Assembly: GCA_030039525.1 (NCBI GenBank)
Contig: JASHVI010000197.1
Span: forward strand, 1 to 37,894
Length of the DNA: 37,894 bases
Source: Thermoplasmata archaeon
GTDB taxonomy: Archaea > Thermoplasmatota > Thermoplasmata > Lutacidiplasmatales > UBA184
Direction: 5' to 3'
Part shown: positions 538-21,323 of the stretch, piece by piece
Layout: each line of letters opens with the position of its first letter
Position numbering within the stretch: the stretch's first letter is position 1
The notes under the pieces: model-generated
The model's database searches: none
Told to the model about the DNA's origin: nothing
What the model saw: the letters and a program-made list of their open reading frames with translations, nothing else
Made by a program: the position numbers and the translations under genes

Positions 538-1431
538 TCAGCCGATGGTTACGTTGTCGAGTCGAATGTAGTTCGGCCCGGTTCCCAAGTTCTCTTCGGC
601 CGTCGCCCGCGCATGCCCCAGGATCGAGGTCCGATCCGCAAGGATCTCGGACTCGGCGACCGCTTGGATATCGATCTCGAGCTGATACCTATCGGTGGTC
701 ACGAAGGGGACCGACACCGGCAGCTTGTCGTGGAACGTGGCGCTGAGCGACGCGTTGCTCCCCGTGACGGTCGAGGTGCAGCCGGACGAACCGCAGGCGT
801 ACATGTCGAGCGACTCGTTGTCGATCGGGTAGGCGTGACTCCAGTAGGTCGAGCTCCAGTAGTAGAAGGTAGAGGTCGTCACGTCGATCACGTACGGCAC
901 CACCTCCAGGTAGACCGAGGCATACTGGACGCAATAGCGCGACACGAAGCTCGAGCGGGCGCACCCCGCGTGCTGGAGCGTCTCGTTCCAGGACGCGCGG
1001 AAGGTGAGATTCGCCGTGACCACCGCCGTGCCGTTGGTCGACGGTCGGAGCGGGAGGAGGATGGTGAAGCCCATCTCCGCGAGCGACTCACTTTCGTATC
1101 CTCCGCCGTCGTACGACGCCGCGCAGGACTTCGCTCCCGTGATCAGGCCGAGGCCCCCCTGGCCGGTGGAGAGCTGGAGGTGGGGCCGATCCGTCACCGT
1201 GAGCCTCGCGCACCCGGACCGACCGTCATCCGTCCAGGGCCGGACGTGGCCGCTGAACGGGGCCGAGAACGTCGTGACGCCATTCGGCAGGATCGCGGGG
1301 GCGGCTCCGGCGGTGCTCAACGAGAGTACGGCCAGAAGAGCAAAGGGTGCGGCCCACAGCGCGGCCCGGACCGCCCTCGGTCCCCGACGTGCGGCGTGGC
1401 ACAGGGCCGGGCCGTTCGCGCGGGCGACCAT
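538..1431 (-). CDS. Secreted Cys-patterned, sequon-rich protein, paralogue A of a six-member family (function unknown)
   Basis: This is the C-terminal 297 codons of ORF 538..1773. I took the start at ATG 1431..1429 (MVARANG...), followed by a hydrophobic signal-like segment (AAPFALLAVLSLSTAGAAP). It has several NxS/T sequons and the CGSSGC motif shared with paralogue B. Its ATG shares one base with the TGA of the upstream paralogue (TGATG). Confidence 0.8.
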   Translation of the reverse strand: MVARANGPALCHAARRGPRAVRAALWAAPFALLAVLSLSTAGAAPAILPNGVTTFSAPFSGHVRPWTDDGRSGCARLTVTDRPHLQLSTGQGGLGLITGAKSCAASYDGGGYESESLAEMGFTILLPLRPSTNGTAVVTANLTFRASWNETLQHAGCARSSFVSRYCVQYASVYLEVVPYVIDVTTSTFYYWSSTYWSHAYPIDNESLDMYACGSSGCTSTVTGSNASLSATFHDKLPVSVPFVTTDRYQLEIDIQAVAESEILADRTSILGHARATAEENLGTGPNYIRLDNVTIG

Positions 1432-2297
1432 CACTGCACCAACAGGCGGTTCAGCGAGAGACCCGCCCCGCCCGCGCCCAGATTGAGCGCGGCGGCGCCA
1501 TTGGCGTGCCCCAGAAAGTGGGTGGATCCGGCTTCGAAGACCACGTCGGTGGTCGCGGTGATGTAGGTGATCCACTGGTAATGATCCGACACCAGCAGGG
1601 ACGAAGTGACCGTGGTGGAGAGACGGTAGGTCCCGAAGTAGCTGGCGGAGGCTCCGGTCACGTTGGATACGCAGCCGGAGCTGCCGCACGTCATCGAGTC
1701 GGTGGTCGAGTTTTCGATCTGGTATCCGTAGAGGGAGTTGGGCCGGAGGTATGATTGGTTGGTCGTGTCCCAAATGAAGTAGTAGATGTCGAGCTCAACG
1801 TAAGCCTCCTGGAAACAGTACGCCCCGTTCGAGCCGGCCGCGCAGGTGGTCGCATTCAACCACTCCCCCCATCCCAATTTCAGGGTCCAGTTCGCCGTGA
1901 CGGATTGCACCCCGTTCCGGGGCACATGGATCGGGATGCTCATGACGATCTGACCCGTGGTTCCGGCCCCGGTCTGGTAGTACCCGCCTCCCGCCGCGCG
2001 CGCGCAGGTCTTGCCCCAGGTGGAAACGCCCAATCCTCCGAGACCGGAGGAGAGGTTGAACCAAGGCCGCGTTCCAACGAGCGAGTGCGAGCAGGCAGCG
2101 AAGGACTTGTCGACCGACACGGACCTCGTCCCGTGGAAAGGGGCGCGAAGAGCGACGGCTGGGTGGGTGGACGCAGCGGACGCAGCGCCCGAGAGGACCA
2201 CGAGGATCGAGAGGGCCCCGACGGTCGCGATCCCGCGTAGTCGGACCGACGCACCGAGGCGACGCGTTGGGGGAGGGCGGCTCGGGACTCGCTGCAA
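1431..2297 (-). CDS. Secreted Cys-patterned, sequon-rich protein, paralogue B (function unknown)
   Basis: 288-aa ORF with a signal-like N-terminus (IATVGALSILVVLSGAASAAS). It aligns by eye with paralogue A: APFxG after the signal, GGLG, VTANxT, CGSSGCxSxVTGxxAS, LGHA...NLG at the C-terminus. Confidence 0.8.
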   Translation of the reverse strand: MQRVPSRPPPTRRLGASVRLRGIATVGALSILVVLSGAASAASTHPAVALRAPFHGTRSVSVDKSFAACSHSLVGTRPWFNLSSGLGGLGVSTWGKTCARAAGGGYYQTGAGTTGQIVMSIPIHVPRNGVQSVTANWTLKLGWGEWLNATTCAAGSNGAYCFQEAYVELDIYYFIWDTTNQSYLRPNSLYGYQIENSTTDSMTCGSSGCVSNVTGASASYFGTYRLSTTVTSSLLVSDHYQWITYITATTDVVFEAGSTHFLGHANGAAALNLGAGGAGLSLNRLLVQ

Positions 2298-2521
2298 CGG
2301 TGGCCGAGCGGGACTCCGCTGGGTTGGTAAAGGGTTTTCGAGGCGTGAGGGATGTCCGTCTCGCTCGACCCCGGGTTCAGAATGCCTGGGTTGTGGACCA
2401 AGCTAGGGGCCCCGCAGCCTACCGCCTCGGTCGCGTGGCGAACCTCGGGAGTCGACCATCCCTGGGCGATGCCCGCCGAGGGCGCGGACCGCGATCCCGG
2501 CGCCCGCCCGCTCGTTGCCCC

Positions 2522-3631
2522 TTACCAAAGACTGGACTGCGAATCCTCGTTCCCGTGCCGGGCGAAGGCCTGTCGGACCGTGGCCGAAATGGCGGAAACG
2601 TCGACGCTCTCGACATGCTCCCCCGTGGCGGAGCCCGACGACCACGCGTGGGGGACCGCCAGCCACTGTCCGGGGTAGGTCGCGTTGGAGCCGGCGCCCG
2701 TGTCGTAGTAGAGCCCCAAGGTCGCTCGGAGGCTGGTCACGTTCGTCACCTCGGAGCAGCACGGGCCGGCCAGGACCCACTCGGCGTCCACGTGACCTCC
2801 TCCGGGCCAATGCGTTCCGACCTCGATCTCGGGGTGCCCTGCGCCCGCGGAGCCGGGCGTGAACAGGATTCGATCGAAATATCCCGAGTATCGAACGGTC
2901 GACCCTTCCTTCACCGCGCCGTAGAACGCGAGGCAGGAATCGTGGGCCCGAGCGCACGTGTAGTACGAGTTCATGTTCGGCCCGACGGTCATCACCGCCC
3001 ACAGGGAGATGGGCAGGGTCAGGTTGTAGATGACCGGTCCGACGCAGTAGTAGAACAGGCCTCCTTTCGACCCGAGGCTCGCGAACGCGGCCTGCCGGCA
3101 CGCGCCGCTCTGGTTCACCGCCATCGAGCCCGGGTCTAGGTCGCGAGCCTTGCTGGACTCGTTCCGGAGATTGTCCCCGAAGCTCACGCTGTAGGTTCCC
3201 CGGACGCATGGCAGCGAGCAGACCTTCCCGTCAAAGCCGACGTTCACGATGTTCTGGGGCCAGTACGAGCCGTTGTTGTTCTCGTCCATGAGCCCGAAGG
3301 CCCCGAGGTTCTCCTGCAGGCTCATGCAGGTGGTCGCGTACGGGTCGACTTTCGGCGGGCAGGAGGCTCGGTTCGAGAGCTTGGCCATCGTCAACTTCGT
3401 GATCTTCGCAAAACCCTCGAACGACGCCGCCGCGTATTGATAGGCGGTCCCATTGGGAGCGACGCCGTAATCGACCACGCCCATGGAGCAGTTCGAGCCG
3501 CAGACCGCCCCCGGCGGGGTCACGCTCGGCGTGGCGGCGGACGCCGCAGCGGCGGGGTTCGCCAGTCCGGCCGATAGAAGAAGCAGCGCCGGAATCGCGA
3601 GCAGCGCGATGCGACGACCGATCCTCAACAT
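2522..3631 (-). CDS. Thermopsin-family (peptidase A5-like) secreted protein
   Basis: ORF 2522..3679. The preferred start is ATG 3631 (MLRIGRRIALLAIPALLLLSAGLANPAAAA, signal peptide). MGVVDYGVAPNGTAYQY, SLQEN and YWPQNIVNV match my recollection of thermopsin hallmarks (GIADYG, QLN, YWxQNV), and the region aligns with the N-terminal part of ORF 10257..12386. Many NxS/T sequons. Confidence 0.7.
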   Translation of the reverse strand: MLRIGRRIALLAIPALLLLSAGLANPAAAASAATPSVTPPGAVCGSNCSMGVVDYGVAPNGTAYQYAAASFEGFAKITKLTMAKLSNRASCPPKVDPYATTCMSLQENLGAFGLMDENNNGSYWPQNIVNVGFDGKVCSLPCVRGTYSVSFGDNLRNESSKARDLDPGSMAVNQSGACRQAAFASLGSKGGLFYYCVGPVIYNLTLPISLWAVMTVGPNMNSYYTCARAHDSCLAFYGAVKEGSTVRYSGYFDRILFTPGSAGAGHPEIEVGTHWPGGGHVDAEWVLAGPCCSEVTNVTSLRATLGLYYDTGAGSNATYPGQWLAVPHAWSSGSATGEHVESVDVSAISATVRQAFARHGNEDSQSSLW

Positions 3632-3948
3632 CCGATCGAGCCTACCTCGCCCGCGGCATCCTTCAGGCTCCTCGGTCAAATGAGCCTATGGAAGGCCGGA
3701 GGCTTCCCTTCGTCGGGGCAGTGGCAGTCCGCCGGGATCACGCGGCGCAAGTCGCGAACCCGGGTGGCGGTCGAGGGCGCATCCGGCCGGCTCCTCGCCG
3801 GGTCCCTTCGGCCGAGAGGGGGCGCGCATCGGGGAAGTGCGCTGCGCGGTCCGCTGCGGGATTCGGTAGGCTTCGAACCGGCCGGAGCCGTGGGAAGCGG
3901 TTGGGGGGGGGTCCAGCGGGAAGGCTGGACCCCACGGAGGGATCGGCG

Positions 3949-4851
3949 CTATGCGATCTTTATCCCGCGGAGTAGGGCTCCGTTCCCGAGGCTGCCCATG
4001 TTGAACTTGGCCTCCGCCGAGGGGGTTCCCTTCGCCTTGGCGTTGTCGAGCTCCACCTCCGAGTCGGTCTCCACGAGGAACGTCACGTAGACCTCGTACG
4101 CGTGGCTCGCGTTCAGGACCGGCGTCGTGAAGTTGTTGTAGATGCTCGTGACGTAGGTGTTCGAGCCGCTGAGCCCCGTGCCCGATCCAAAGCTGTAGTT
4201 CCCGCCGATCGGGGTGCAGGGCGTCGACACGCAGCTGAGCTGGCTGTAGTTCTCGACCGTCGCATAGTCGGCGATCGCCGAGACGAACGAGAACGTGATC
4301 GTGTAGTTGGTGAGGTCCTCGAAGATCGTGTACGTGTAGAGCTCCACCGAGGCCGTGGCCAGGCATTCGGAGAGCGCCGCCGCGTAGTTCAGCTTGCAGT
4401 GCGTGTAGGGGGTCACGGCCCACGAATCGAGCATGTTCAGGGCCCAGGTCTCGTTGACGGTGTACGACCGGTTGGCCGTGATGGTGACCGGTATCGAAAG
4501 GTCGAGGTACGTGTACCACTGCGCTTCGGTCCCGAGGCCCGGCGACTGGCACCCGGAGGCGTTCGACGTCGCGGACGTTCGGAAGGTCCCGGTCTTCGGC
4601 GCCCACTTCGGCTGCTTCTGGACGGTGAACTTCCCGCAGCCGGCGAACCCGCTCGAGACCTGGATCGACGCCCCGACGTGCGTGTACGGCGCGATGATGA
4701 CGACCCCGCTCGTCACCGACGCGCTCGCCGGCGAGAGTAGCATGAGGCTCGCGGCGAGAAACGCGAACGCTGTCGACCCCACCACCGTGAGTCGAATCGG
4801 GCGGGCCATCGGCTTCGGGAGGCTCCTTCGGTTGCTCATGGTGCAGTCCAA
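3949..4851 (-). CDS. Secreted Cys-patterned, sequon-rich protein, paralogue C (divergent)
   Basis: 300-aa ORF with signal-like AFAFLAASLMLLSPASA, APYxH after the signal, a conserved Cys pattern, and the C-terminal motif AEAKFNMGSLGNGALLRGIKIA resembling the A/B termini. Alternative starts are at 4839 and 4809. A TATA-like tatatat lies at 4904..4910 upstream. Confidence 0.75.
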   Translation of the reverse strand: MDCTMSNRRSLPKPMARPIRLTVVGSTAFAFLAASLMLLSPASASVTSGVVIIAPYTHVGASIQVSSGFAGCGKFTVQKQPKWAPKTGTFRTSATSNASGCQSPGLGTEAQWYTYLDLSIPVTITANRSYTVNETWALNMLDSWAVTPYTHCKLNYAAALSECLATASVELYTYTIFEDLTNYTITFSFVSAIADYATVENYSQLSCVSTPCTPIGGNYSFGSGTGLSGSNTYVTSIYNNFTTPVLNASHAYEVYVTFLVETDSEVELDNAKAKGTPSAEAKFNMGSLGNGALLRGIKIA

Positions 4852-4903
4852 CTCCTGCCCGGGCCCCGCCCGGGGTCCTGGGCGCCCTCCGATCCGGTCC
4901 GTC

Positions 4904-6075: not shown

Positions 6076-7485
6076 GTGAGGTTGTTCGGCGGCGCCTCGA
6101 TGGTGAGTATTGCGGCGGTCGGCCTTCTGCTCCTGACGGTATTGCTGCCCGGATCCGTTTCCGGCACGGCCGTACCGGCCGGTGGGGCCCTCGCCCCGTT
6201 CGTTCTTCCGGGAGTCTCGGCCTCCACCCTCTGGGGAAATCCGGCGTGTCACGGAGGCCCCTTCGACGTCGGTCCCGCGAACCTGACCTCGAGCTCGGTC
6301 GTGACGCTTCCCGCTCCCGAGTGTGACTACATCTACGCCGGAGTCACCAACGGGGCCAACATTACGTCAGCCAGCCTTTCGGCCAACTTGACCTGGCCTC
6401 TCGCGAATTCCAGCTACGCCAAGTGGCGCGGCGCCTCGCAGATCGTCGAGATCGGCTCCGAGACGACCTCCGCCACCCGCGCCTGGAAGTACGTGGCCTA
6501 CCCCTCGTCGGCCAGCTTGACGGCTCCCGCCAACGGGACACCGGAACTCGGAGGTGTGGTCGTCTCGGCGCTCCCGACCGGGTTCCAAACCTACGTCTCC
6601 ACCAACTCCAGCTCCCTGACGGGATCGATCACCCTCCAGTCCCGCGCGTTCGTCCTCCTCGCCGTGGCCGCTTCGGGCGATTACTCGCCTCGCGTCGCAT
6701 CGCCGCTTCAGACGATCGCATCGCGGAGCCTCGGGAAGGGGGACTCCCTGCTGTTCGCGAGCGGCCGCTTCGGAGCGGGCTCGCAGACGTTCAGCGTCTC
6801 CTCGACCCAATCGAGCCCCGACGGATCGATCTCCGCCGTCCTCTACTACTACACCCAGACGAGTGACGTCAGGTCCCCGCTCTGGGGGGGTTATGTGGTG
6901 CCCACGGCGCGCGGGGTGACCGCCGTCAGCGAGGAATACTCGATCCCTCGCATCACGCGGCATTGCGGATACGGCGTCTCCGCGGCCGACATCCTGGTGG
7001 GGATTGATGGCTGGCGCGACTCGACCTCCGAGGTCGTAGGGACGACCTTGCTGTGCACGAACGGGACTCAAACGAACACCGCGTGGTACGACCTGCTTCC
7101 CTCCGCACCCGTAGCGATTCCCATCCCGGTCGCGATCGGACACAGCTACTACGCGTCGGTCGGATTCAACGCCACCACGCAGAACTACACGTTCACCTTC
7201 GTGGATCTCACGACGTCCAGGAGCTTCACCGCGACGGTCCACTCGAGCTCCAAGCCCTTGCGCAACGGGAGCTCGGCGGAGTGGGTCGTCTCGCTGGTGC
7301 CGGCGACCACCGCCAGCGGATACCTCCCGATCGCGAACCTGAGGAAAGGGTTCCGGATCAGCGACTGCCAAGCCACGATCGACGGCCAGACCGGAAAGAT
7401 CGCCGCCTTCTTCAACGACCGGGTTTCGGGACCGACCCACCCGGGTACCCTCGGCAAGACCGGGGACAGTTTCTTCGACCGATAG
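6076..7485 (+). CDS. Secreted protein with a C-terminal glutamic-peptidase (G1/eqolisin, Pfam Peptidase_A4)-like domain
   Basis: GTG 6076 is preceded by GAGGTG (alternative ATG at 6100). Signal peptide: VSIAAVGLLLLTVLLPGSVSG. The C-terminal about 200 aa show WGGYVV, VGIDGW, TAWYDLLP, a VxxxxxTxNYTFTFVDLTT block and SSAEWVVS. These correspond to the G1 motifs WxG, WVGIDG, AWYEWxP and SAEWIVE. The N-terminal about 260 aa have no family I recognise. Confidence 0.65.
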   Translation: MRLFGGASMVSIAAVGLLLLTVLLPGSVSGTAVPAGGALAPFVLPGVSASTLWGNPACHGGPFDVGPANLTSSSVVTLPAPECDYIYAGVTNGANITSASLSANLTWPLANSSYAKWRGASQIVEIGSETTSATRAWKYVAYPSSASLTAPANGTPELGGVVVSALPTGFQTYVSTNSSSLTGSITLQSRAFVLLAVAASGDYSPRVASPLQTIASRSLGKGDSLLFASGRFGAGSQTFSVSSTQSSPDGSISAVLYYYTQTSDVRSPLWGGYVVPTARGVTAVSEEYSIPRITRHCGYGVSAADILVGIDGWRDSTSEVVGTTLLCTNGTQTNTAWYDLLPSAPVAIPIPVAIGHSYYASVGFNATTQNYTFTFVDLTTSRSFTATVHSSSKPLRNGSSAEWVVSLVPATTASGYLPIANLRKGFRISDCQATIDGQTGKIAAFFNDRVSGPTHPGTLGKTGDSFFDR

Positions 7486-7623: not shown

Positions 7624-10002
7624 ATGGGCGGCGTGAGCGTCCGACTGCTCGTCCTCGCCGGCCTCGCGGTCGTGCTGATGGGCGTTCCTCCGCTCTCCGC
7701 GGTGGCGGCGGCCCAGCCGCTCTCGCCCGACCGCGTCGCCCCGTCGCTGGCGGTGCCGCCGGCCCTCGCGCCGGCGGTCATCTCTCCGGTCGATGTCGTC
7801 GACTACGTGCCGATCAACATCACCAACAATCAGTCCGTCGCGACCCCCGCTCCCTTCGACCTCCAGCTGTCGGTCAATAGCAGCGCCTACGCCCCGCTGG
7901 AGGCCGGTAATCTCTCGAACGTCGAATTCTTCGGGTCGAACGGCTCGATCGTGCCCAGCTGGTTGGAGTCCGGCGATTCCAACAGTTCCAACGCAACGAC
8001 CTATTGGCTCAACCTCAGCGGAGGGATTCCCGCCACCTCATCGGTCACCCTCTACCTGGGCTTCGGACGCCCGGGAGATTTCCTGTTGAACAACGTGAGC
8101 ACCGGGGAGGCCCCCCAGCTCAGCGCTTCGGGGAATCCCTACTCGCCCGGGTCCACAGGGTACGGTGAGTTCGACGACGGCGCGGCCGTGTTCCCGTTCT
8201 ATCAGGACTTCCAGAACGTCGACCCGGGCCAGGCACCGCGCGTGGACGACAGCACCCCACCGCCGGGCTGGTATTCGAGCCCCCCGACGCACACCGGCTA
8301 CTGCAACTACCCGTTCAACGGGGCGAACGGCTGGGAGGCCAACGGGGTCAACGGATGCGGGGTCGTGTTCATCGGATCGGACTTCCCGGTCAACGGGAAC
8401 CTCACGATCGACATCGACGTCGACTGGGTCCAGACCGTGACTCCCAACTGGCAGGCCCCGTTCGTGGTCAGCTCCTCTCCCACCTCCTACGTACCCACCG
8501 GGAACTTCGCCCTCGAGTGGGACGACTATTCCATGGCCAGCTGCAACACCTTCGGATACGGTTCGAGCTTCGACGCCAAGACCGGACCGGGCGGGACGAC
8601 CCGGCACTCGTTCGGCACCGTGTACACCCCCTTCGTGCTGACCGTGAACGCGAGCCAGGTGGCGATGAACTACAGCACGATCTACACTCCTTCCGGGGGG
8701 ACGTTCAACCGCTCCGGTTACCTCGCGATGGCCGTGCACACCAGCAACTACTGCGGTTCCCGGGTCGGGGGCTGGTGGGTCCGAGAGCGGGCCCCGCCGC
8801 CGAACGGCGTCATGCCCTCGGCGTCGTGGGGAGTCCTCGTCCACGTGGGACATCCGAAGCTCACTCTCGCCGTCACTCCGTCCCGGATCGTGATCCCCGC
8901 CTCCGGATCCGGCTCCTTCACGGTGACGGTGGCCCAGACCGGCGGGGGAACCTGCGGCTCCGGGTGCGTTTCCCTGAGCGCCAGCTCCAGCCCCTCGCTG
9001 ACCCCGGTCGGATTCCTCCTCTTCACGCCGTCCGCGGTACGGCCGGGCCAATCGGCGACCCTGGACGTGATGACCTCCGGGGAGGACGGAGGCGTGCAGT
9101 CCCGGTCGCTCCTGTCCGAGTTCACGACGCCCGGGACCTACAGTCTCTCGATCACCGCGCAGATCTACCCGTTCCCGGCGGTCCACCACCGCGCGACGGT
9201 CGTCGTCGAGCCCACGATGGGACTCTTGAATCACCTGAACTTCACCGGACTCCCGACGAGCAACCTCTCCACGCCGTGCAACCTCTCCCTCGTCATCTCC
9301 TGGCCGACCTGCATCGCGATCGAGCAGAACTCCTACGTCGTGGTCGCAGGGGACTCCCGCACCATCTTCTGGACCCAGGCGATCCTCGGGTACGGCCTCG
9401 ATGCGGGGGGTTCCCCCGCGATCTTCCACACCCTCGCTTTCTGGGAGTACAACCTATCGACCGGGCGAAGGACCCTGTTGGCCCAGCATCGGCTGGCGAG
9501 CTCGTGGAGCCCGACGACGTCGACCGTGAACTTCTCGCTATCCACGGAGATCTCCCTGAACGGCACGATCACCTTCCGGGAGACCTACTTCGACACCTCC
9601 CGGCACTCGGAGACGCAATCGTACACCCTGCCCGGCGGTTGGGGAGGCACGCCGACGTTCTACACGGGTCCCTCCTACAGCGTGACCGGAATCCGGCGAA
9701 GCTTCTACGTCAGCCCGCCGCAGCTCGATTTCGGAGGACCGCCGACCGCGGGGAGCGCCACGCTCGCCCCGGGGACGTTCGGCGCCGTCCAGCGGGCGGA
9801 GCTCGAGCTGGGAACGAGATTCTCGGAGGCCCCTACCCTGGGCCTCGTGGTCCTCGCCGGCGCCACCGGCGATGAGTTCGAGGACCAGTCCGGGGTGCAC
9901 TCCTCTAACCTGGCGTGGGTGATCTCCGCGGGTCCCCCTTCGGCGCCTGCCACGTTCGCCTACGTGAGCGGCGCGGATGACGAGGGGATCTGCTTCTACT
10001 GA
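7624..10002 (+). CDS. Large secreted surface protein: DUF2341-like N-domain, LamG/ConA-like domain, Ig-like domain, unassigned C-terminal domain
   Basis: 792-aa ORF with a signal peptide (LLVLAGLAVVLMGVPPLSAVAAA). YVPINITNNQ...FDLQLSVN...NVEFFGSNGSIVPSWLE...TYWLNLSGGIPATSSVTLYLGFG fits the DUF2341 pattern. GGWWVRERAPPPNG resembles the DWVRVRKY end of the associated LamG-like domain. Very sequon-rich. Confidence 0.7.
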   Translation: MGGVSVRLLVLAGLAVVLMGVPPLSAVAAAQPLSPDRVAPSLAVPPALAPAVISPVDVVDYVPINITNNQSVATPAPFDLQLSVNSSAYAPLEAGNLSNVEFFGSNGSIVPSWLESGDSNSSNATTYWLNLSGGIPATSSVTLYLGFGRPGDFLLNNVSTGEAPQLSASGNPYSPGSTGYGEFDDGAAVFPFYQDFQNVDPGQAPRVDDSTPPPGWYSSPPTHTGYCNYPFNGANGWEANGVNGCGVVFIGSDFPVNGNLTIDIDVDWVQTVTPNWQAPFVVSSSPTSYVPTGNFALEWDDYSMASCNTFGYGSSFDAKTGPGGTTRHSFGTVYTPFVLTVNASQVAMNYSTIYTPSGGTFNRSGYLAMAVHTSNYCGSRVGGWWVRERAPPPNGVMPSASWGVLVHVGHPKLTLAVTPSRIVIPASGSGSFTVTVAQTGGGTCGSGCVSLSASSSPSLTPVGFLLFTPSAVRPGQSATLDVMTSGEDGGVQSRSLLSEFTTPGTYSLSITAQIYPFPAVHHRATVVVEPTMGLLNHLNFTGLPTSNLSTPCNLSLVISWPTCIAIEQNSYVVVAGDSRTIFWTQAILGYGLDAGGSPAIFHTLAFWEYNLSTGRRTLLAQHRLASSWSPTTSTVNFSLSTEISLNGTITFRETYFDTSRHSETQSYTLPGGWGGTPTFYTGPSYSVTGIRRSFYVSPPQLDFGGPPTAGSATLAPGTFGAVQRAELELGTRFSEAPTLGLVVLAGATGDEFEDQSGVHSSNLAWVISAGPPSAPATFAYVSGADDEGICFY

Positions 10003-10256: not shown

Positions 10257-12386
10257 ATGCATTGGAGCCCCGGAATCACCCACGTGGAGGCCCGGTGGAT
10301 GGCCTGGGGGATCTTCGCTACTGCCTTCCTGCTTGGACTCCCAATCGCCGGGTCGGCCCCGGTCCAATTGCCCAGGCCCCCGGGCCTAGCCGGCGAGACC
10401 GCCCCGATCTCGCAGCCGGTCGAGTGGGTCGCGGGTCCGGCCCACGAGGTAGGCTCGGGAAGCGCTGGCCGACCAGACAGTCCAATGCCCGCGGTAGTGA
10501 ATCCGTACCTGTTCGAGTCGGATGAGCCGGCCGCTATCGGTGTCGCCGACTATGGGCTCACCGCTTCCGGAGTAGCGTACAACTATTCGACCCCCGAGTT
10601 CGTAGGAACTGCTTCGATCGGTTCCGTCGCCGTCGCGAGCTCGGGCGGCGCCGGAAAGCTGCTCGGGATCCAACTGAACCTCGTCCTCTCCCTCGGACCG
10701 ACGGGCCACCCCTACGTCTATTGGGTTCGGTTCGCCCCCTGGGTCAACGCCTCGACCGACGTCCTCACCCTGCAGAACGAGGTGTTCAACCTTACTTCGA
10801 CGTCTACGGACAATCCATCTCCCATCTCGGGTCGGGGCGCCATCAACACCGCCGAGGCGGACCAATATCAGTACACGCCGCCCTGTTCGTCGTCGTACCC
10901 CGGCAACTGTGCCGCCCTGTCGTTTCCGGCCCTCATGCAGCTGAGGGCCGTCTCTCAGGACGTCGATGGAGTGCCGGGGCTTGCCATCGCCTACAACCTC
11001 GGCCGTGGATGGATCTCCGAGGACAACATCTCCTTCCCCAGCCTCTCTGGCCTCGCCGACCGCGATTTCGTGGTCAATGGGTCGGGGTACACTCCGACCG
11101 GGCTCTTCTATGACGCCGAGTTCGTTCTGGGCGGTCCGTACCACGGGTACACCCAGACCAACCTGGGTTCGACCATCCAGCTGTCGCTGGACGAGTTCAA
11201 TGGACACAATCTTCAGGTGGTGCCCAACGCCTGGAACTTCGGCGCAGAGTCCTCCAATCGATTCCAAAACGCGTCCACCGTCGTGTCGGCCGCCAACGCC
11301 AGCCCCGCGGACCAAGTCGGGGCCGGGTCGGGCAAGCTCGGCCGACTGTACTCCACCTCGAACGAATCCACGGTGACGGTCGTCGGCGTGCCGACGTCCG
11401 GCGTGCTGACGGTGGATGGCTCTCCCCTCAACTATTCAGGGGGTGAGGCCGTGGTGGAGCTCGCCCCTGGTCGGGTCGCGCTCCAGCTGGTCTCCAACGG
11501 GTCCGTTCTGGCAAGTCGGAACGTGACGTTGACCGCGGGTGAGGTCACCACGATCTCGATGAACGCGTTCTACCCGATTGAGATCGAGGAGGCCGGCCTC
11601 CCGCCCGGAGCGAACTGGTCCATCGACTGGGCAGGTGAGATTCTGAGTTCCAATCTAAGCCATCTCGTCATCCTCGCCCTCAATGGAAGCTACACGCTGC
11701 GCGTCGAGAATGTCACGGGATTCACCTGCAATTTCACGGTCGAGCCGGTCCGGGTTCTCGGTCCTGGCGTGGTTCGCCTGGGCTGGTCACCCTTCCTGTT
11801 CGTAGTGCCCTTCGATGAGACCGGACTCACTTCCGGGACGTCCTGGTGGGTCACTATGGACAACCAAACGGCTCGTGGGGTCGGCCCCACTCTCAACGTC
11901 AGTGCAGGTAACGGATCGTACGCCTTCACCGTTGGTGCGCCCTACGCATTCGTCCCCTGGAGTGCGACGGGAAATGTCTCGGTGGACGGACCTCCAGGCC
12001 CTGTCCAGGTCGGCTTCAACTATCGACTCTCGTTCCTCGCGGGCAGCGTTCGACCCTCAGCTGCCATCGTATCGATCGGGGGAAGCTCGGTTGCGGTCGA
12101 TTCCGGCACCTTCAACGACTCGGTCCTCCCCGGTACCTACTTCGTCAGCGTTTCCGACCTCGGTTATGTTACCTGGTCGCGAAACGTCACCACGACCCCG
12201 GGCAACACGACCGAGTTGGCGATCGCTCTGAACGCGACTCCGTCGGCGGAGAAGCTAAGCCCAGAGTCGGCGCCGGGACCCGACTGGACGCTGGTGGAGG
12301 TTGCGTCAGTGACCGCGGTCGCCACGGTCGTCGGGGTCGCGATCATTCTACTGCGTCGGCGGTCGACCGGTCCGGGTTCGCGGTAG
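10257..12386 (+). CDS. Thermopsin-family (peptidase A5-like) protease with repeated beta-rich C-terminal domains and a C-terminal transmembrane anchor
   Basis: 709 aa. Signal-like MAWGIFATAFLLGLPIAGSAP (alternative start 10299). AAIGVADYGLTASGVAYNYSTPEFVGTASIGSV, LGIQLNLVL and YVYWV are thermopsin-like. The C-terminal WTLVEVASVTAVATVVGVAIILLRRR is a TM helix followed by basic residues. Confidence 0.8.
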   Translation: MHWSPGITHVEARWMAWGIFATAFLLGLPIAGSAPVQLPRPPGLAGETAPISQPVEWVAGPAHEVGSGSAGRPDSPMPAVVNPYLFESDEPAAIGVADYGLTASGVAYNYSTPEFVGTASIGSVAVASSGGAGKLLGIQLNLVLSLGPTGHPYVYWVRFAPWVNASTDVLTLQNEVFNLTSTSTDNPSPISGRGAINTAEADQYQYTPPCSSSYPGNCAALSFPALMQLRAVSQDVDGVPGLAIAYNLGRGWISEDNISFPSLSGLADRDFVVNGSGYTPTGLFYDAEFVLGGPYHGYTQTNLGSTIQLSLDEFNGHNLQVVPNAWNFGAESSNRFQNASTVVSAANASPADQVGAGSGKLGRLYSTSNESTVTVVGVPTSGVLTVDGSPLNYSGGEAVVELAPGRVALQLVSNGSVLASRNVTLTAGEVTTISMNAFYPIEIEEAGLPPGANWSIDWAGEILSSNLSHLVILALNGSYTLRVENVTGFTCNFTVEPVRVLGPGVVRLGWSPFLFVVPFDETGLTSGTSWWVTMDNQTARGVGPTLNVSAGNGSYAFTVGAPYAFVPWSATGNVSVDGPPGPVQVGFNYRLSFLAGSVRPSAAIVSIGGSSVAVDSGTFNDSVLPGTYFVSVSDLGYVTWSRNVTTTPGNTTELAIALNATPSAEKLSPESAPGPDWTLVEVASVTAVATVVGVAIILLRRRSTGPGSR

Positions 12387-13899: not shown

Positions 13900-14637
13900 A
13901 TGAGCGCCCGGCTTTCGGCGATCGCGTTGGGGGCCGCCTTCGTCGCTATCGTAGTTTCGGGGTTCGCGAGCGGTGCGAGCCCGGCCACCGGCCCCGTCCT
14001 TTTCACCTACACACCATCGTACGCGAGCAGCGGCGGGAGCCCGTACCTCGGAAGCCACGTCGTCATGAGCCCGGGAGCCAACACCCTCCATGGCGTGCAC
14101 GCGTTCAACCTCGCGTCGGGACACGCGGTTCAGAATTCCTCCTCGGCGTCTGGGAAGACCAACGGCAATCCGATCTTCCAGGTCTGGTCCGGGGTGACGA
14201 ATCTCACCTTCAAGTGTACCGCAAGCTGCGCCGCCGTCAGCGGCCCGTCGGTCAAAGTGGTGTGGAAGTTGTCGTGGCAAGCCTCCCTCTACGATGCCAG
14301 CTGCTACCCCGGCACGGGCTACTCGGAGGTTTCCCTTGCGCTCGACGGCAATGTCGTCGATCTGTCGACAACGCCGCGCGCCGCCGTGGGCCAGGGCCGG
14401 CTGGCCATCTACCATGACGAGCTGACGCTGGCGCAAACGCCCGTTGTGACTTCGAAGATCGACCACAGCTATGCCCTCTCATTCCCCGTGACGCTCACCC
14501 ACGGGAACTTCTATCGCGTGACCGAGTACGTGCAAGCGGAGACCCAAGCGGGGGGGTACGGGTGTGGTGCCCGCTCCGACGTGGCGGTCGGCGGGCCACT
14601 GGGCCCCGCGGTTCTCGAATCGATCACCGTGCTCTGA
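13900..14637 (+). CDS. Secreted sequon-rich protein, paralogue D of the six-member family
   Basis: Signal peptide MSARLSAIALGAAFVAIVVSGFASGAS. It shares VKVVWKLSWQASL (compare VRAVWKVAWIVNL in F), SFPVTLTHGNFY (compare SFPIPATLTRGDAY in F and IPVVLSRGHGYY in E) and a GG..GPAVLESITVL-type terminus. Confidence 0.75.
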   Translation: MSARLSAIALGAAFVAIVVSGFASGASPATGPVLFTYTPSYASSGGSPYLGSHVVMSPGANTLHGVHAFNLASGHAVQNSSSASGKTNGNPIFQVWSGVTNLTFKCTASCAAVSGPSVKVVWKLSWQASLYDASCYPGTGYSEVSLALDGNVVDLSTTPRAAVGQGRLAIYHDELTLAQTPVVTSKIDHSYALSFPVTLTHGNFYRVTEYVQAETQAGGYGCGARSDVAVGGPLGPAVLESITVL

Positions 14638-15583: not shown

Positions 15584-16369
15584 ATGGAACGCGCCGGGCG
15601 GTTCAGTCGCTATCTGACGAGAGGACGCGCGGCGATCTCCGTGGTCGGTGCGCTCGCCGTCTGCTCGCTCGTGCTCGTACCGAGCGGCGCGGCCGCCAAG
15701 ACCCCCTTGTACGTGTGGCGCCCTCCGTTTCTCGGCGCGACCGAGTTCAACTACACGAGCTCGTATACGGGGAGCCACTGTGGAGTCACGGCGGGCGCGC
15801 CGATCGCGCCCTTCTTCAACACGTCCACCGGCAGGCTCGCCGCGGAGCTCAACACGACCGCTCGGGAGGGCACGTGCAATGCCGACCTCGATCCGGCGGT
15901 CTACACCGACGTCGGCATCGAAGGTCCGGTCGTTAACCTGACCTCGTGGGGTCTGCACGTGCTCCGGCTCAATTGGAAATTCCACTACAACGCGACCCTC
16001 ACGGTGCACTCGAGCGGGAATCCGGGTTCGGGGTCCACGGATGCGTATGCCCTCTTCTCGTTCACGATCGACCTGGATCTCTGCGACAACACGACCGGCA
16101 CCTGCTCCGCCAGCTCGGGACCCGTCTACTCCGCGCAGGGCCAGATCACCACGGGGGACCGGATCGTGAGTTCCAGCTGGGACGCGCGGATGACGATGCC
16201 GATTCCGGTGGTACTCAGCCGGGGGCACGGCTATTATTGGGCCGTCATCGTCACGGCCGAAGTCGAAGCCTTCGCCGCGGCCGGGGGCGCTTCCAACGCG
16301 GCCACCGCGCAGCTGAATTTCGGACTGCCCGGGAACGAATCCCGACTCACTGAGATCGTGATCCACTAG
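15584..16369 (+). CDS. Secreted sequon-rich protein, paralogue E
   Basis: Signal-like AAISVVGALAVCSLVLVPSGAAA, WRPPFLGAT after the signal, LRLNWKFHYNATL, IPVVLSRGHGYYWAV, and the C-terminal ATAQLNFGLPGNESRLTEIVIH (compare AALNLGAGGAGLSLNRLLVQ in B). Confidence 0.75.
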   Translation: MERAGRFSRYLTRGRAAISVVGALAVCSLVLVPSGAAAKTPLYVWRPPFLGATEFNYTSSYTGSHCGVTAGAPIAPFFNTSTGRLAAELNTTAREGTCNADLDPAVYTDVGIEGPVVNLTSWGLHVLRLNWKFHYNATLTVHSSGNPGSGSTDAYALFSFTIDLDLCDNTTGTCSASSGPVYSAQGQITTGDRIVSSSWDARMTMPIPVVLSRGHGYYWAVIVTAEVEAFAAAGGASNAATAQLNFGLPGNESRLTEIVIH

Positions 16370-17491: not shown

Positions 17492-17500
17492 GGATGTGCG

Positions 17501-17518
17501 TATACTTACATCAGTATA
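17501..17518. promoter_or_regulatory. Palindrome TATACT-N6-AGTATA in the hxlR/MFS divergent intergenic region (candidate operator/TATA)
   Basis: tatacttacatcagtata has perfect 6-bp inverted arms and lies 10-27 nt upstream of the hxlR ATG. The hexamer agtata recurs at 17611..17616 inside the AT-rich box aaaagtatag, 27-36 nt upstream of the MFS ATG. Confidence 0.4.
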
Positions 17519-17643
17519 AATTCGTAACGCGCTCCTCACCCGAAGCGTTACCGCGCTACAGCTCATTCGGGGGTGGTCGCGATTGTCGGTCATCGTTATG
17601 TAGTGCTAAAAGTATAGCGATTAGTCCCGAGGCGAGTGGGCGG

Positions 17644-19131
17644 ATGACGTCACACCAGACCGCGGAGCGCGAGGACACGGCGCCATCTCCTGCGACCGGC
17701 CGCGGGCGTTGGACCCTCCTTCTGACGGGAATCGGCTTCTTCGTGGTGATCCTCGACGCGTTGGTCGTCGTCACCGCGCTCCCCACGATCCACGCCGACG
17801 TCGGGGGGAACCTCGCCTCCCTCCAGTGGATCCTGAGCGCCTACCTGCTGGCGTTCGGGGCCGGCATCCTCCCGGCCTCCACGCTGGGGGACAAGTTCGG
17901 CCGGAGGAGGCTCTACGCCGCGGGCCTCGCGATCTTCACGGCCGCCTCGGCCGCCGGCGCGCTGGCTCCCTCCCTCGAGACCCTGATCCTGGCCCGGGTG
18001 GTCCAGGGCCTCGGGGCCGCGTTCATCGCTCCGCTGAGCCTGGCCCTCCTGGGCAGCGCCTTCCCCCCGGAGCACCGCGGGGCGATGATCGGGATCTGGG
18101 GGGCGATCGGAGGCGCGGGTATCGCGGCCGGTCCGGTGGTCGGAGGCGCGGTCACCGAGGGCCTCGGCTGGCAGTGGATCTTCTGGATCAACGTCCCGAT
18201 CGGGATCGTGGCCGTTCTCCTCACCCTGCTGAAGGTGCCCGAGAGCCGCGGGGCCGACTCCCACGTGGACCTGCTCGGGGTGGGGCTCGTCTCCGGGGCG
18301 GGGGTCGGGCTGCTCTGGGCCCTCGTCCAGGGCGCGGTGGTCGGCTGGGCGAGCGCGCAGGTCCTGTTCTCGGCGGTGGCGGGGGTCGGGCTGCTGGCGA
18401 CCTTCGTCCTCTGGGAATCGAGGGCCCGGGAACCGATGATGCCGCTCCACCTGTTCCGGAACCGGACCTTCACGTCCGCGAACGCCGTGGGGTTCCTCAG
18501 CCAAGGAGCGATCTTCGCGACCGCCACCCTCGTGACGGAGTACTTCCAGACCGTCCTCGGCTACTCTCCGCTGGACGCGGGCCTGCGGTTCCTCCCGTGG
18601 ACCGCCGTGCCGCTGCTCGTCGCTCCCTACTCGGGCCGGCTCGTCGACCGTATCGGCGCCCGGCCGGTCATGGTGGGCGGGCTCCTCCTCGAGCTGGCCG
18701 GCTTCAGCCTGTTCACGCTGCTGGCCGAGCCCTCGACCCGTTACTCCCTCCTGCTGGCCCCGCTCTTCCTCACGGGTCTCGGGGTCTCGCTCGTTCTGCC
18801 GTCCGCCCCGATGGCGGTGCTGGGCTCGGTGGCCCGCGAGGACATCGGGAAGGCCTCCGGGACCCTCAACTCCTTCATGCGGTTCGGGGGAGCCTTCGTG
18901 GTCGCGCTGGGGACCAGCGTCCTCGCGGTCGACGACGCCCAGGGTTCCGCGGCGGGGTTCCTTTCGGGGTTCCGACCGGCGATGGAGATCATGGTCCTGC
19001 TCACGGTCGTGGGAGTCGCCTTCGCGCTCGCCGTCCGGCCACCGCCCGTGGGGGCGACCGCGAGGGCGTCGCCGGGTGCGCCGGGGTCGGTCCGACCGGC
19101 CCCCGCCCCCGCGGCGTTGGAAGGAATCTAG
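17644..19131 (+). CDS. MFS transporter, DHA2 (EmrB/QacA-like, 14-TMS) drug:H+ antiporter family
   Basis: From ATG 17644 (MTSHQTAER...). LDALVVVTALPTI, LQWILSAYLLAFG and GDKFGRRRLY (MFS motif A), with many hydrophobic segments along about 495 aa. Confidence 0.9.
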   Translation: MTSHQTAEREDTAPSPATGRGRWTLLLTGIGFFVVILDALVVVTALPTIHADVGGNLASLQWILSAYLLAFGAGILPASTLGDKFGRRRLYAAGLAIFTAASAAGALAPSLETLILARVVQGLGAAFIAPLSLALLGSAFPPEHRGAMIGIWGAIGGAGIAAGPVVGGAVTEGLGWQWIFWINVPIGIVAVLLTLLKVPESRGADSHVDLLGVGLVSGAGVGLLWALVQGAVVGWASAQVLFSAVAGVGLLATFVLWESRAREPMMPLHLFRNRTFTSANAVGFLSQGAIFATATLVTEYFQTVLGYSPLDAGLRFLPWTAVPLLVAPYSGRLVDRIGARPVMVGGLLLELAGFSLFTLLAEPSTRYSLLLAPLFLTGLGVSLVLPSAPMAVLGSVAREDIGKASGTLNSFMRFGGAFVVALGTSVLAVDDAQGSAAGFLSGFRPAMEIMVLLTVVGVAFALAVRPPPVGATARASPGAPGSVRPAPAPAALEGI

Positions 19132-19229
19132 ATGAGGGCGACCGCGTGACGGTCCACCGAGAGCGAGACCCCACGGGACCCGCTCCGACCGAGGACCTGA
19201 CACGCCGTGACCGAGAGCCGGATTCCCGG

Positions 19230-19646
19230 ATGAGGTCCAAGGCATCGAAGCCCGCGGGAGCGAGCGGGACCCCTCCGAAGCAGTTCGAGGCCCGGCTGCG
19301 GCGGACGCAGGACTGGCGAGCGGAGACCTTCGCTCGGCTCCGGGCGTTGATCGTCCGGGCGGATCCCGAGATCGTCGAGGAGCTGAAGTGGAAGAAGCCG
19401 AGCAACCCGGAGGGGGACCCCGTGTGGTCCCACGACGGGATCGTGTGCGTGGGGAACGACCTCAAGAATTCGGTGCGGCTGACGTTCGCGCAGGGCGCGG
19501 AGATCCGCGACCCGACCGGGCTGTTCAACTCCCGGCTCGATAGCAAGTCGGTCCGCGCCCTCGACGTGTTCGAGGGGGACGCCGTGGACGATCGCGCGTT
19601 GATCGCGATCGTACGCGAGGCGGTCCGGCTCAACTCGGTCGACTGA
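19230..19646 (+). CDS. DUF1801 (YdhG-like) domain protein
   Basis: The last 138 codons of the 645-aa ORF 17709..19646, from ATG 19230: ...FARLRALIVRADPEIVEELKWKKPSNPEGDPVWSHDGIVCVGNDLKNSVRLTFAQGAEI... fits the DUF1801 pattern. The upstream part of the ORF is a shadow of the MFS gene. Confidence 0.7.
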   Translation: MRSKASKPAGASGTPPKQFEARLRRTQDWRAETFARLRALIVRADPEIVEELKWKKPSNPEGDPVWSHDGIVCVGNDLKNSVRLTFAQGAEIRDPTGLFNSRLDSKSVRALDVFEGDAVDDRALIAIVREAVRLNSVD

Positions 19647-19771
19647 CGAGGGATACCGGCGGGAAGATCCCCGCGAGGTCGGGAGGATCGGATCGGAGCG
19701 GCTCGCGACCCGCCCACGGTCGCGACCCGGCGTTCCACCCGCCCCGGGGATCCGGGTTCGTCCGTCGTCGC

Positions 19772-20221
19772 TCAGCCGTCGAGCCGGGATCGGAGGTCGT
19801 GGCCGTTCTCGAGGACGGATTTCAGGTTCAGGGCGAAGTACGTCCATCCCCACTCGGCACCCCCGTAGAGATCGGTCCACTTCTCGTCCTTCGGAAAGCC
19901 GGAATGTTCCACCACCAGGAGGGCGCCGTCGTCCTTGGGCTCCACGGAGAGCTTGAACTCGGTGCCCTGCAGATCCACCCCCGGCCAGCTCCACGCGAAG
20001 GTGACGCTCTTGCCCGGTGCCAGGTCGAGGATCGTTCCCGTGTGGGTCGGACCGCCGTCCCAGCCGAGCGAGTAGCGCGCCCCCTTCCGGTCGGTGCCTT
20101 CGGCACGATCCGCCAGCCACGTGACCAACATCCGGGGGTCGGTGATGGCCTCGAAGACCCGGGCGGGCGATGCTCGGACGAAGTACTGGTGGCTGACCGA
20201 TCGGGTTCCCGTCGCCGCCAT
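19772..20221 (-). CDS. SRPBCC superfamily protein (Aha1/AHSA1-like domain)
   Basis: VRASPARVFEAITDPRMLVTWLA...VEHSGFP......WGWTYFALNLKSVLE is typical of the bacterial/archaeal AHSA1-domain family. Confidence 0.85.
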   Translation of the reverse strand: MAATGTRSVSHQYFVRASPARVFEAITDPRMLVTWLADRAEGTDRKGARYSLGWDGGPTHTGTILDLAPGKSVTFAWSWPGVDLQGTEFKLSVEPKDDGALLVVEHSGFPKDEKWTDLYGGAEWGWTYFALNLKSVLENGHDLRSRLDG

Positions 20222-20513
20222 GCCGCTCGCTCCGTGGGGCCCAGCGCGGGACCGCCCTTAACGCTCGAGGGCTGCTCGAAACCTCGGGACCCGGTTCGGA
20301 GCCTCTCGCCTCGCTCGAGTGGGCCGCTCCGGCAGGGGCCTCCAGGGGCTCGAACGGCGCCGGGGACTCCGAACCCCCGGGCGTTCCGAAGGCTCCGAAC
20401 GGCGCGAGGGGGCCCGCTCCTCCCGGTACCGCGCGGAGCGAACCGTGCCTGCCACCCGGCGAGCCGGCTTAAAGAGCGGGCCGACGCTGGACGCCCAGCC
20501 CGCGGAGGCGAGC

Positions 20514-21323
20514 GTGCCCGAGCCGAGATCCTCTTCCGAATCGTCCGTACGGCGCCGTTCCGCGAACGACGGACGGCGCCTCCGCGCGCTGGGTCCGTGG
20601 ACGCTCGGCACCGCCGCGGCCGTCCTGATCCTGCTGGGAGGGTCGGCCGGGGCCGCGGCACCGGCGACCTACCTTCACTGGTCCGCGCCGTTCCACGGAG
20701 CGAGCCTGTCGTTCAGCCCTACCCCGGATAACCACTGCCGAACGGCCGTCGTCGGAGGGCCCCGGATCTTCTCGAAGCAGGGGCGACTGGAGTTCAACCT
20801 CACCGTCGTCGGAGGGGTCAACAGCTCCCTGTGCCCCCGGGGCGGACCCCCCGGCTACCGGTCGACGAGCGCCGAGGGGATCTTCGTGTCGAACTTCACC
20901 TCGACTCGCTCCGGCCCGGTCACGGTCCGAGCGGTCTGGAAGGTCGCGTGGATCGTCAATCTCTCGGTACCGGCGGCGCATCCGTCCGGGTACCTCGCCG
21001 GGGCCGAGGCCTATGGCACGGTCGTCCTCTACGACCGGACGACCGGGGCGACCTGGACGAGTCCCGGCTCGGGCGGCTTCGCGTACGATCACGGGGTCGA
21101 CCTGATCGGGAACGTGACGAACGTCAACGTCAGCTTCTCGAAGCTTCTCTCCTTCCCGATCCCCGCGACGCTGACGCGCGGCGACGCCTACTCGTTGATG
21201 CTCACGCTCGGGATGTCGGCGACCGTCTACTCGGTCGTCCGGTCGTTCGGACCGGTGACCTCCCACGCGACCTTTGGCCCGGCGGGGAGCAAGGCGGGGC
21301 TCGTCAGCGTCTCCATCTCCTAG
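20514..21323 (+). CDS. Secreted sequon-rich protein, paralogue F
   Basis: ORF 20319..21323. I prefer GTG 20514 because a TATA-like gcttaaagagc (20467..20477) lies about 40 nt upstream. Basic N-region (RRRSANDGRRLRAL), hydrophobic TLGTAAAVLILLGGSAGAAAP, WSAPFHGAS after the signal, VRAVWKVAWIVNL, SFPIPATLTRGDAY. The start codon is uncertain. Confidence 0.7.
   Translation: MPEPRSSSESSVRRRSANDGRRLRALGPWTLGTAAAVLILLGGSAGAAAPATYLHWSAPFHGASLSFSPTPDNHCRTAVVGGPRIFSKQGRLEFNLTVVGGVNSSLCPRGGPPGYRSTSAEGIFVSNFTSTRSGPVTVRAVWKVAWIVNLSVPAAHPSGYLAGAEAYGTVVLYDRTTGATWTSPGSGGFAYDHGVDLIGNVTNVNVSFSKLLSFPIPATLTRGDAYSLMLTLGMSATVYSVVRSFGPVTSHATFGPAGSKAGLVSVSIS

Follow-up and report, generated by a model that had tools for sequence, protein, structure and literature searches.

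Six related genes in the window

We analyzed contig JASHVI010000197.1 of a Thermoplasmata archaeon, taken in its entirety as the window (37.9 kb, 67% GC), with regard to six genes, denoted A to F, whose products have signal-like N-termini and share a set of short motifs. Paralog A (538-1431, 297 amino acids (aa)) and paralog B (1431-2297, up to 288 aa from a TTG codon) belong to the A/B subfamily, and paralog C (3949-4851, 300 aa at maximum) to the C subfamily, in which the motif C-x-L-N-Y-x4-S-x-C is conserved; all three are encoded on the minus strand. On the plus strand, paralogs D (13900-14637, 245 aa), E (15584-16369, 261 aa) and F (20514-21323, 269 aa) fall into the D/G, E and F subfamilies, respectively. 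A six-frame profile scan returned exactly these six copies inside the window. The same organism is represented by a second assembly, GCA_030046255.1, in which the region is divided over JASIDW010000197.1 (L001) and JASIDW010000015.1 (L002). L001 reaches past the left end of the window and carries, about 2 kb beyond it, paralog G (P0002; L001 6901-7647, minus strand), a D-like protein of 248 aa.

The six open reading frames (ORFs) are coding-like in composition, with a GC content at third codon positions (GC3) of 0.78-0.93 against 0.52-0.62 at second positions (GC2), and NCBI calls genes at all six sites on the sister assembly. The coordinates and translations given in an earlier, sequence-only reading of this DNA agree with ours; as a correction to its description, A, B and C lie on the minus strand. 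For B, C and F, the position of the start codon is uncertain. The NCBI call for B (229 aa) is probably too short because it leaves out the signal peptide together with the conserved APFHG motif, and the start of C is most likely the ATG at 4839, giving 296 aa. For F, which occupies the region 20319-21323 on the plus strand, the NCBI call begins at 20445 and yields 292 aa with an unusually long n-region; we count the protein from the GTG at 20514. Between B and A, the minus strand reads ...GTG CAG TGA TG GTC..., so the TGA stop codon of B shares its A with the ATG of A, and the 1-nt overlap that had been noticed is real. Given this overlap of stop and start in TGATG, a single transcript probably serves for the joint translation of B and A.

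The proteins also bear out every motif that the sequence-only reading had quoted for them, namely the APFxG-type segment, VxxxWxxxW, PVxLTxGxxY, the C-terminal strands and the CGSSGC of A and B. Behind its signal peptide, A has SAPFSGH, six sequons and three Cys pairs, the CGSSGC hairpin among them; B has an RAPFHG-type motif, E has RPPFLGA with seven sequons, and F has SAPFHGA with six. In D, TPSY takes the place of the AP[FY] motif, the first Cys pair is missing and only two sequons are present. A, B and C share an extra insert with a Cys-flanked hairpin (CGSSGC in A and B), which is absent from D, E and F.

The window carries a gene for the archaeal marker ribosomal protein S3Ae (30884-31702, minus strand). 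Adjoining it is a transfer RNA (tRNA) gene at 30740-30842 on the minus strand, which was matched by Rfam RF00005 over the full model (positions 1-71, 56 bits) and on which ARAGORN was silent. Since the gene spans 103 nt, the tRNA appears to contain an intron. The presence of S3Ae together with an intron-bearing tRNA points to an archaeal origin of the window.

Homology among the six proteins

The six proteins were compared pairwise by BLAST and phmmer. The A-B pair scored 130 bits, A/B against C 35-39 bits, and D, E and F among themselves 29-37 bits. These scores divide the proteins into two subgroups with only weak cross-links, via B; cross-group pairs such as A-D, C-D and C-F were individually not significant, and some of the alignments took in the signal peptide. 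At the profile level, an ABC profile and a DEF profile were aligned by hhalign over 238 columns with a probability of 96.8% and an E value of 2.7e-10. In addition, an independent hidden Markov model (HMM), built solely from 142 proteins of other organisms, matched all six proteins full-length; relative to a library of 1.8e9 proteins, the E values range between 5e-54 for C and 1.5e-18 for D. The concern voiced in the sequence-only reading, that the shared motifs might be compositional artefacts, thus does not hold, as the profile-level matches are significant despite the weak single pairs. Judged from these sequence comparisons, the relationship that it proposed is secure, and the six ORFs are true paralogs of one family.

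Breadth and age of the family

An exhaustive HMMER search with an 8-sequence profile returned 468 cluster representatives at E ≤1e-3, 101 of them at E ≤1e-10. The best 150 of the 468 representatives are 154-331 aa long, and nearly all were matched to the profile end to end. The family is therefore not private to this locus. Word-indexed searches with B alone, a 7-sequence profile or a 70-sequence profile gave only self matches, the D ortholog P0004 and P0060, and a scan of JGI metagenomes added three short soil contigs with relatives.

In keeping with the sequence-only reading, which matched the proteins to no named family, no characterised domain was matched. None of 151 members reached the threshold of any Pfam model, every weak match being a singleton; NCBIfam gave no match for the seven members compared, and PDB sequences gave none with single sequences or with the 70-sequence profile. 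When C was searched against plasmid and phage collections with tblastn, no match was obtained either. A real, undescribed archaeal protein family is strongly supported.

The member-bearing contigs have a GC content of 57-74% and include soil-labelled material, for example the ENA record GD_farmland. Archaeal markers occur on several of them: eRF1, Sec61beta and RFC on L007, TBP on L019 and a thermopsin on L013. Members of the Lutacidiplasmatales have about 69% GC, and thermopsin and A4 are among their most prevalent extracellular peptidases (PMC9287336). Considering that high GC, soil source and the thermopsin and A4 peptidases fit that description, the source organism is probably an acid-soil Thermoplasmatota with high GC, of the type represented by the Lutacidiplasmatales.

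The sequence-only reading described the paralogs as locally expanded and diverging, which is misleading. C shows 39-40% identity to P0011 and P0010, D shows 76% to its ortholog P0004 and 48% to P0009, E shows 32% to P0028 and F shows 39% to P0046, whereas the other window paralogs reach at most about 31% with C, D, E or F in local BLAST alignments. Only A and B, the tandem pair, are mutual nearest relatives, at 34% identity. Because C, D, E and F are closer to proteins of other organisms than to the copies beside them, the cluster, by sequence identity, brings together at least five old subfamilies in one place and is no recent local burst.

Export signals, cysteines and conserved residues

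To assess export, we used a heuristic check consisting of a Lys/Arg count, a 12-residue hydrophobic window on the Kyte-Doolittle (KD) scale and an A-x-A-type site. All six proteins have one to seven Lys/Arg, then a 12-residue window with a mean KD of 2.25-2.92, then an ASA/AGA/AAA-type site, so the signal-like N-termini described earlier are present throughout by this measure; the hydrophobic window is also found in 137 of 151 relatives. The (A/P)-P-(Y/F)-x-G motif (Pro in 89%) follows at a median of 14 residues past the hydrophobic core, about 8-10 residues beyond the predicted cleavage site. A class III (pilin) signal peptide was not found, as the cleavage-type motif comes after the hydrophobic segment and not before it. 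At the other end, none of 157 sequences has a C-terminal anchor, defined as a 15-residue window with KD >2.0, or a PGF-CTERM signal; the conserved last β-strand, L-x-S-[IV]-x-[IV], extends to the C-terminus.

Two cysteine columns of the family HMM, 64 and 93, are both Cys in 128 of 151 members, both non-Cys in 21 and mixed in two, and the number of cysteines in the mature part is even in 132. A second, optional pair occupies columns 144 and 152, and there is no conserved C-terminal Cys. The co-variation of the columns and the even counts argue for disulfides and, therefore, for an extracytoplasmic protein. Sequons exceed the expectation from composition-shuffled sequences in five of the six window copies (P 0.0015-0.022); D is not enriched. 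The family median is six sequons per protein, in recurrent columns. The earlier description of an exported, Cys-patterned and sequon-rich family is supported.

In full-length B numbering, the conserved positions are G-C69-G (Cys 86%), P-x-F...T-G85 (Gly 98%), C98 (85%), G129-x-H131 (Gly 79%, His 56%), W137 (81%), C152 and C161 (66% and 52%), D177-x-T-x-G (Asp 93%), (H/D)238-x-Y240 (His or Asp 88%, Tyr 93%), A269 (85%) and L282-x-S-(I/V) (Leu 93%). Conservation is highest at G, P, W, Y, C, L and A residues and at a single Asp. Some members have N, E or T in place of that Asp, which belongs to the D-x-T-x-G turn, and paralog G lacks the Asp; in 40% of members the turn, as D-x-T-N-G-(S/T), also forms a sequon. 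The (H/D)-x-Y position switches between His and Asp, and the His is found in only two of the seven local paralogs. Asp, His/Asp and Tyr or Phe are present together in 127 of 151 members.

Predicted fold

The mature part of B (1434-2174, minus strand) was used for structure prediction. AlphaFold2 with eight sequences gave a predicted local distance difference test (pLDDT) score of 70.6 and meaningless Foldseek matches; this run was superseded by one with a 70-sequence alignment, which gave a pLDDT of 95.4 and a predicted template modeling (pTM) score of 0.90. The model is an elongated β-sandwich of 14 β-strands, several of them 17-20 residues long, without helices. When the conserved positions are placed on the strand map of this model, G-x-H, D-x-T-x-G and (H/D)-x-Y are all predicted at the ends of hairpins and all at one end of the sandwich; the residues Cys69 and Cys98 appear to lie at the same end of neighbouring hairpins, and the cysteines of CGSSGC appear to flank a hairpin turn. 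Because both terminal strands are in place in this complete, confidently predicted monomer, there is no indication of donor-strand exchange.

In Foldseek searches against the PDB, nothing reached a template modeling (TM) score of 0.5 or above. The top match was Bd1399 (8OKH), with an E value of 1.6e-5, a probability of 1.00, TM scores of 0.25/0.33 and a root-mean-square deviation (rmsd) of 10.7 Å. The matches that came next had E values of 2.5e-4 or above: jelly rolls of capsids and FlaA1, a sheath protein (both with TM scores of at most 0.26), as well as carbohydrate-binding modules and lectins. Against BFVD, all matches were weak, with TM scores of at most 0.37, and fell on tail-fibre and collagen-like head domains. 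No pilin, thread or TasA chain was among the top 50 PDB matches, and family members had no Pfam match to Peptidase_M73/TasA.

Taken together, an architecture consisting of a Sec-type signal peptide, an (A/P)-P-(Y/F)-x-G segment and a self-contained 14-strand β-sandwich of about 215-255 residues is strongly supported. This domain has no membrane or cell-wall anchor, carries about six N-glycosylation sequons and is stapled by one to three predicted disulfides.

Gene neighbourhood

Secreted acid proteases are interleaved with the copies in the window, as the sequence-only reading had noted. A thermopsin (peptidase A5) gene lies between B and C (2522-3679, minus strand, 385 aa; PF05317, E 1.3e-24). 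On the plus strand are a Peptidase_A4 gene of the glutamic peptidase/eqolisin type (6076-7485, 469 aa; PF01828, E 1.4e-18), a gene for a 792-aa protein (7624-10002) that gave only a sub-threshold DUF2341 match and is not a family member, and a second thermopsin with a C-terminal PEGA/CarboxypepD_reg part (10257-12386, 709 aa; PF05317, E 3.6e-46). All four products have signal-like N-termini. Past the left end of the window, a second secreted Peptidase_A4 (L001 5960-6784, plus strand, 274 aa) is encoded next to paralog G. Since G and this gene adjoin the window on L001, the full cluster comprises seven paralogs and four acid peptidases in about 30 kb. The interval also holds genes for RibD_C, glyoxalase, 4HBT thioesterase, HxlR regulator, MFS transporter, DUF1801, AHSA1 and methyltransferase proteins, and these genes mark it as a region rich in exported proteins and not a single operon.

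To see whether the association recurs, we sampled the context in seven organisms with informative contigs. Apart from the window organism (seven copies, two thermopsins and two A4 peptidases), only L013 shows linkage, with a thermopsin-PEGA gene some 280 bp away from two tandem copies; the contig also encodes a 2024-aa CarboxypepD_reg protein. Thermopsin and A4 genes are absent within 10 kb of the two copies of L007, which lie within 4 kb of each other amid Sec61beta, SppA and housekeeping genes, and of the three copies of L017, found with a Kelch propeller and a phosphoesterase. Nor does any accompany the single copies of L011 (11.9-kb contig; Peptidase_M3, TPR), L019 (within 10 kb on one side; TBP, PKD proteins) and L009 (6.9-kb contig; PQQ propeller, MFS). 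The protease linkage therefore holds in the window and recurs in L013 but is not a fixed feature, being present at two of the seven informative loci; it is not obligatory, while local multi-copy clustering is the rule. A conserved three-gene module was considered and ruled out, because the 792-aa neighbour in the window and a 772-aa neighbour in L013 are not homologous.

Other neighbours deserve mention. In L007 (8853-10891), the member P0012 lies directly downstream of SppA (Peptidase_S49) and Sec61beta, which are secretion-related, with no acid protease nearby. Kelch-type β-propellers are encoded beside members on two unrelated contigs (L010 3161-4216 and L017 4004-5977), and PKD-repeat proteins beside a member on a third (L019 6429-8366 and 11846-13050). 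Members may tend to adjoin genes for other exported β-rich proteins rather than proteases specifically.

Elsewhere in the window, the stretch 26000-30700 has a GC content of 0.61-0.64, compared with 0.67-0.74 in the remainder. It encodes a nucleotidyltransferase with an HVO_A0261-like N-terminal domain (28468-29175, minus strand) and an AbiEi/AbiEii type IV toxin-antitoxin pair (29425-29997 and 29939-30691, plus strand), and is probably a horizontally acquired islet. An AAA ATPase with PrkA/MoxR-like matches followed by a VWA-domain protein occupies 31769-35135 on the plus strand, and a T2SSE-type secretion/pilus ATPase at 37049-37894 on the minus strand is interrupted by the contig end.

Proposed role and alternatives

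We propose that the family members are exported, non-catalytic glycoprotein modules for binding, adhesion or coat formation, a reading to which we give about an even chance. The proteins would be exported through Sec and then cleaved by signal peptidase I, and the exported proteins would be oxidised and N-glycosylated. As modules resistant to acid and proteases, they would play their binding, adhesion or coat role in the acidic extracellular space that they would have in common with the thermopsin and A4 peptidases encoded next to them. The conserved end of the sandwich would maintain the fold, while the variable loops and the several old subfamilies could provide different specificities.

Among the functions that the sequence-only reading had put forward, this role is favoured over a protease inhibitor or chaperone and an S-layer accessory protein because the fold is complete and there are neither C-terminal anchors nor invariant catalytic-type residues. 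In particular, a non-catalytic function is suggested by the behaviour of the best candidates for catalysis: the Asp turn is often a sequon site, the Asp is missing in G, and His and Asp alternate at the (H/D)-x-Y position. The Foldseek neighbours, namely Bd1399, carbohydrate-binding modules, lectins and tail-fibre heads, are likewise non-enzymatic sandwiches.

Several points weigh against this proposal. Functional annotation is absent for every member, and the nearest structure, Bd1399, is itself without known function and is matched only locally by the model (TM 0.25-0.33). One end of the modeled sandwich could hold an active site or a metal site made up of the 93% conserved Asp with the nearby His/Asp and Tyr. 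The thermopsin linkage at two of seven loci may reflect chance in thermopsin-rich genomes. Signal peptide cleavage, glycosylation and disulfides are all predicted from sequence, and the taxonomic placement is indirect, as two subfamily-motif scans of GTDB representative genomes found no relative.

Among the alternatives, the proteins might be partners of the neighbouring thermopsin and A4 peptidases, acting as dedicated inhibitors, maturation chaperones or substrate-presenting subunits. In that role they would guard the wall-less cell against the acid proteases that it secretes itself, or direct those proteases to substrates. The co-location of seven copies with four acid peptidases within about 30 kb, the tandem copies about 280 bp from a thermopsin-PEGA gene in another organism (L013) and the signal peptides on both partners are consistent with such a role. 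However, the five other informative loci have no thermopsin or A4 gene, even though some hold two or three clustered copies, and copy and subfamily numbers do not track the number of peptidase genes. The proteins also show no likeness to known peptidase inhibitor or propeptide families, a Kunitz_legume match of E 0.11 in one of 81 members being noise. We therefore consider a dedicated partnership unlikely.

A novel extracellular enzyme, for instance an acid-stable hydrolase built on a β-sandwich scaffold as in eqolisins, seems a still poorer prospect. Under this explanation, the Asp (93%), His/Asp (88%), Tyr (93%) and His (56%), whose hairpins are predicted at the same sandwich end, would form the site. 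The three residues D, H/D and Y/F do occur together in 127 of 151 members, all three motifs fall at strand ends in the secondary-structure map of the model, and β-sandwich acid peptidases exist, one type of which, Peptidase_A4, is encoded next door. However, no residue is invariant: the Asp changes to N, E or T in some members and is lost in G, its turn is a sequon site in 40%, the H/D position alternates, and the His is found in only two of seven local paralogs. In addition, hhalign against the window thermopsins and A4 gave probabilities below 1%, and no enzyme appears among the convincing fold matches.

It is more doubtful again that the proteins are subunits of an extracellular assembly such as a surface lattice, sheath or filament. 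Joint assembly of the old subfamilies would then account for the retention of multiple divergent copies in one place. At least five such subfamilies are clustered in one genome, two or three copies occur per locus in L007, L013 and L017, and B and A appear to be translationally coupled through their stop/start overlap. Archaeal surface structures are typically heavily glycosylated, as the sequon-rich members would be, and weak Foldseek matches to the flagellar sheath protein FlaA1 and to viral capsid jelly rolls point in the same direction. On the other hand, those matches have TM scores of at most 0.26, the monomer model is complete and confident with its terminal strands placed, and neither a membrane anchor, a PGF-CTERM signal nor a class III (pilin) signal peptide is present. 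Assembly or secretion machinery is not consistently adjacent at the sampled loci.

Finally, the explanation that the motifs reflect Ala/Gly/Ser/Thr-rich, high-GC composition and generic signal peptides without common ancestry, to which the insignificant pairs A-D, C-D and C-F and the signal peptides inside some alignments might lend themselves, is refuted for practical purposes by the end-to-end matches of the independent HMM (E ≤1.5e-18), the hhalign probability of 96.8% between the subgroups, the pLDDT 95 model that the alignment yields and the co-varying cysteine columns.

The Thermoplasmatota of acid soils, abundant and uncultured, presumably live on peptides by means of secreted acid proteases, and to our knowledge their exoproteome is essentially uncharacterised. 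The family might represent a structurally new secreted glycoprotein that is a hallmark of these archaea and takes part, with thermopsin and eqolisin peptidases, in an extracellular protein-foraging system, although we regard this as improbable. Its members could in that case be protease-resistant subunits that capture or present substrates, or a shield of the cell against its own acid proteases, the several old subfamilies again providing different specificities.

In any case, the family is a multi-copy component of the exoproteome, with seven genes in about 30 kb here and two or three per locus in other organisms. For annotation, it supplies a new domain, together with an HMM and a pLDDT 95 model. 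For experiments, it offers a small, single-domain, disulfide-stabilised scaffold that is probably stable to acid and proteases. Should a functional link to thermopsin or eqolisin be demonstrated, these little-understood archaeal peptidases would have their first known accessory factor in this family; without such a link, the proteins would be a useful marker of the surface biology of the lineage and another domain of unknown function, with no new principle.

Comparison with known systems

Among the closest known systems are the glutamic peptidases G1 (eqolisins, Peptidase_A4, PF01828) and thermopsin (A5, PF05317), which are likewise secreted into an acidic environment, β-rich and of similar size, and are encoded in the same cluster. 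Kinship with the neighbouring peptidases was nevertheless rejected, as hhalign gave probabilities below 1%: 0.4% against the A4 of the contig, and 0.6% and 0.3% against the two window thermopsins. Neither PF01828 nor PF05317 was matched in 151 members, and, in contrast to eqolisins, the conserved columns hold no pair resembling the Gln/Glu dyad.

Jelly-roll and concanavalin-like modules, such as the carbohydrate-binding modules (CBMs) CBM16, CBM22, CBM61 and CBM11, ConA and the tail-fibre and collagen-like heads of phages and giant viruses, are also extracellular all-β sandwiches with non-catalytic binding functions. They recur among the weak Foldseek matches, and the diversification into paralogs seen here is typical of such modules. 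However, the TM scores are at most 0.37 and the E values at least 3e-5, Pfam models of CBMs or lectins are unmatched, and no sugar- or metal-binding motif was identified in the family. The family members are furthermore stand-alone single domains, whereas such modules are appended to enzymes or fibres.

The nearest structure is that of Bd1399 from Bdellovibrio bacteriovorus (PDB 8OKH, CASP15 T1194; DUF4360, PF14273). Bd1399 has been described as a secreted, disulfide-locked, elongated β-sandwich of 14 strands that is related to DUF4360 and whose function is unknown (PMC10792529). Like the family studied here, it has a signal peptide and a single elongated 14-strand sandwich held by disulfides. 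The two structures nevertheless overlay poorly (TM 0.25/0.33, rmsd 10.7 Å), and the family domain comprises 215-255 residues compared with about 165 in Bd1399. The disulfides differ as well. Bd1399 has C13-C50 and C128-C164, and the DUF4360/Bd1399 layout links the N-terminal loop to β5 and the β11-12 loop to the C-terminus; the family has its conserved Cys pair in the N-terminal quarter and no C-terminal staple, and does not fit this layout. The family is, moreover, archaeal and heavily sequon-rich.

Membership in DUF4360 was considered on account of the fold match to Bd1399 and a weak Pfam match. None of 151 members reached the gathering score of PF14273, and the single sub-threshold match (E 0.0059) is at noise level. 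When the 70-sequence profile was searched against all PDB chains at E ≤10, it gave only signal-peptide-like matches, with 8OKH not among them. Membership was ruled out by the match in only one of 151 members and by this PDB profile search. Because the sequence tests for DUF4360 fail, Bd1399 represents the closest known architecture and not that of the family itself. As a domain family, the present one is new; its general kind, the secreted β-sandwich glycoprotein, is familiar.

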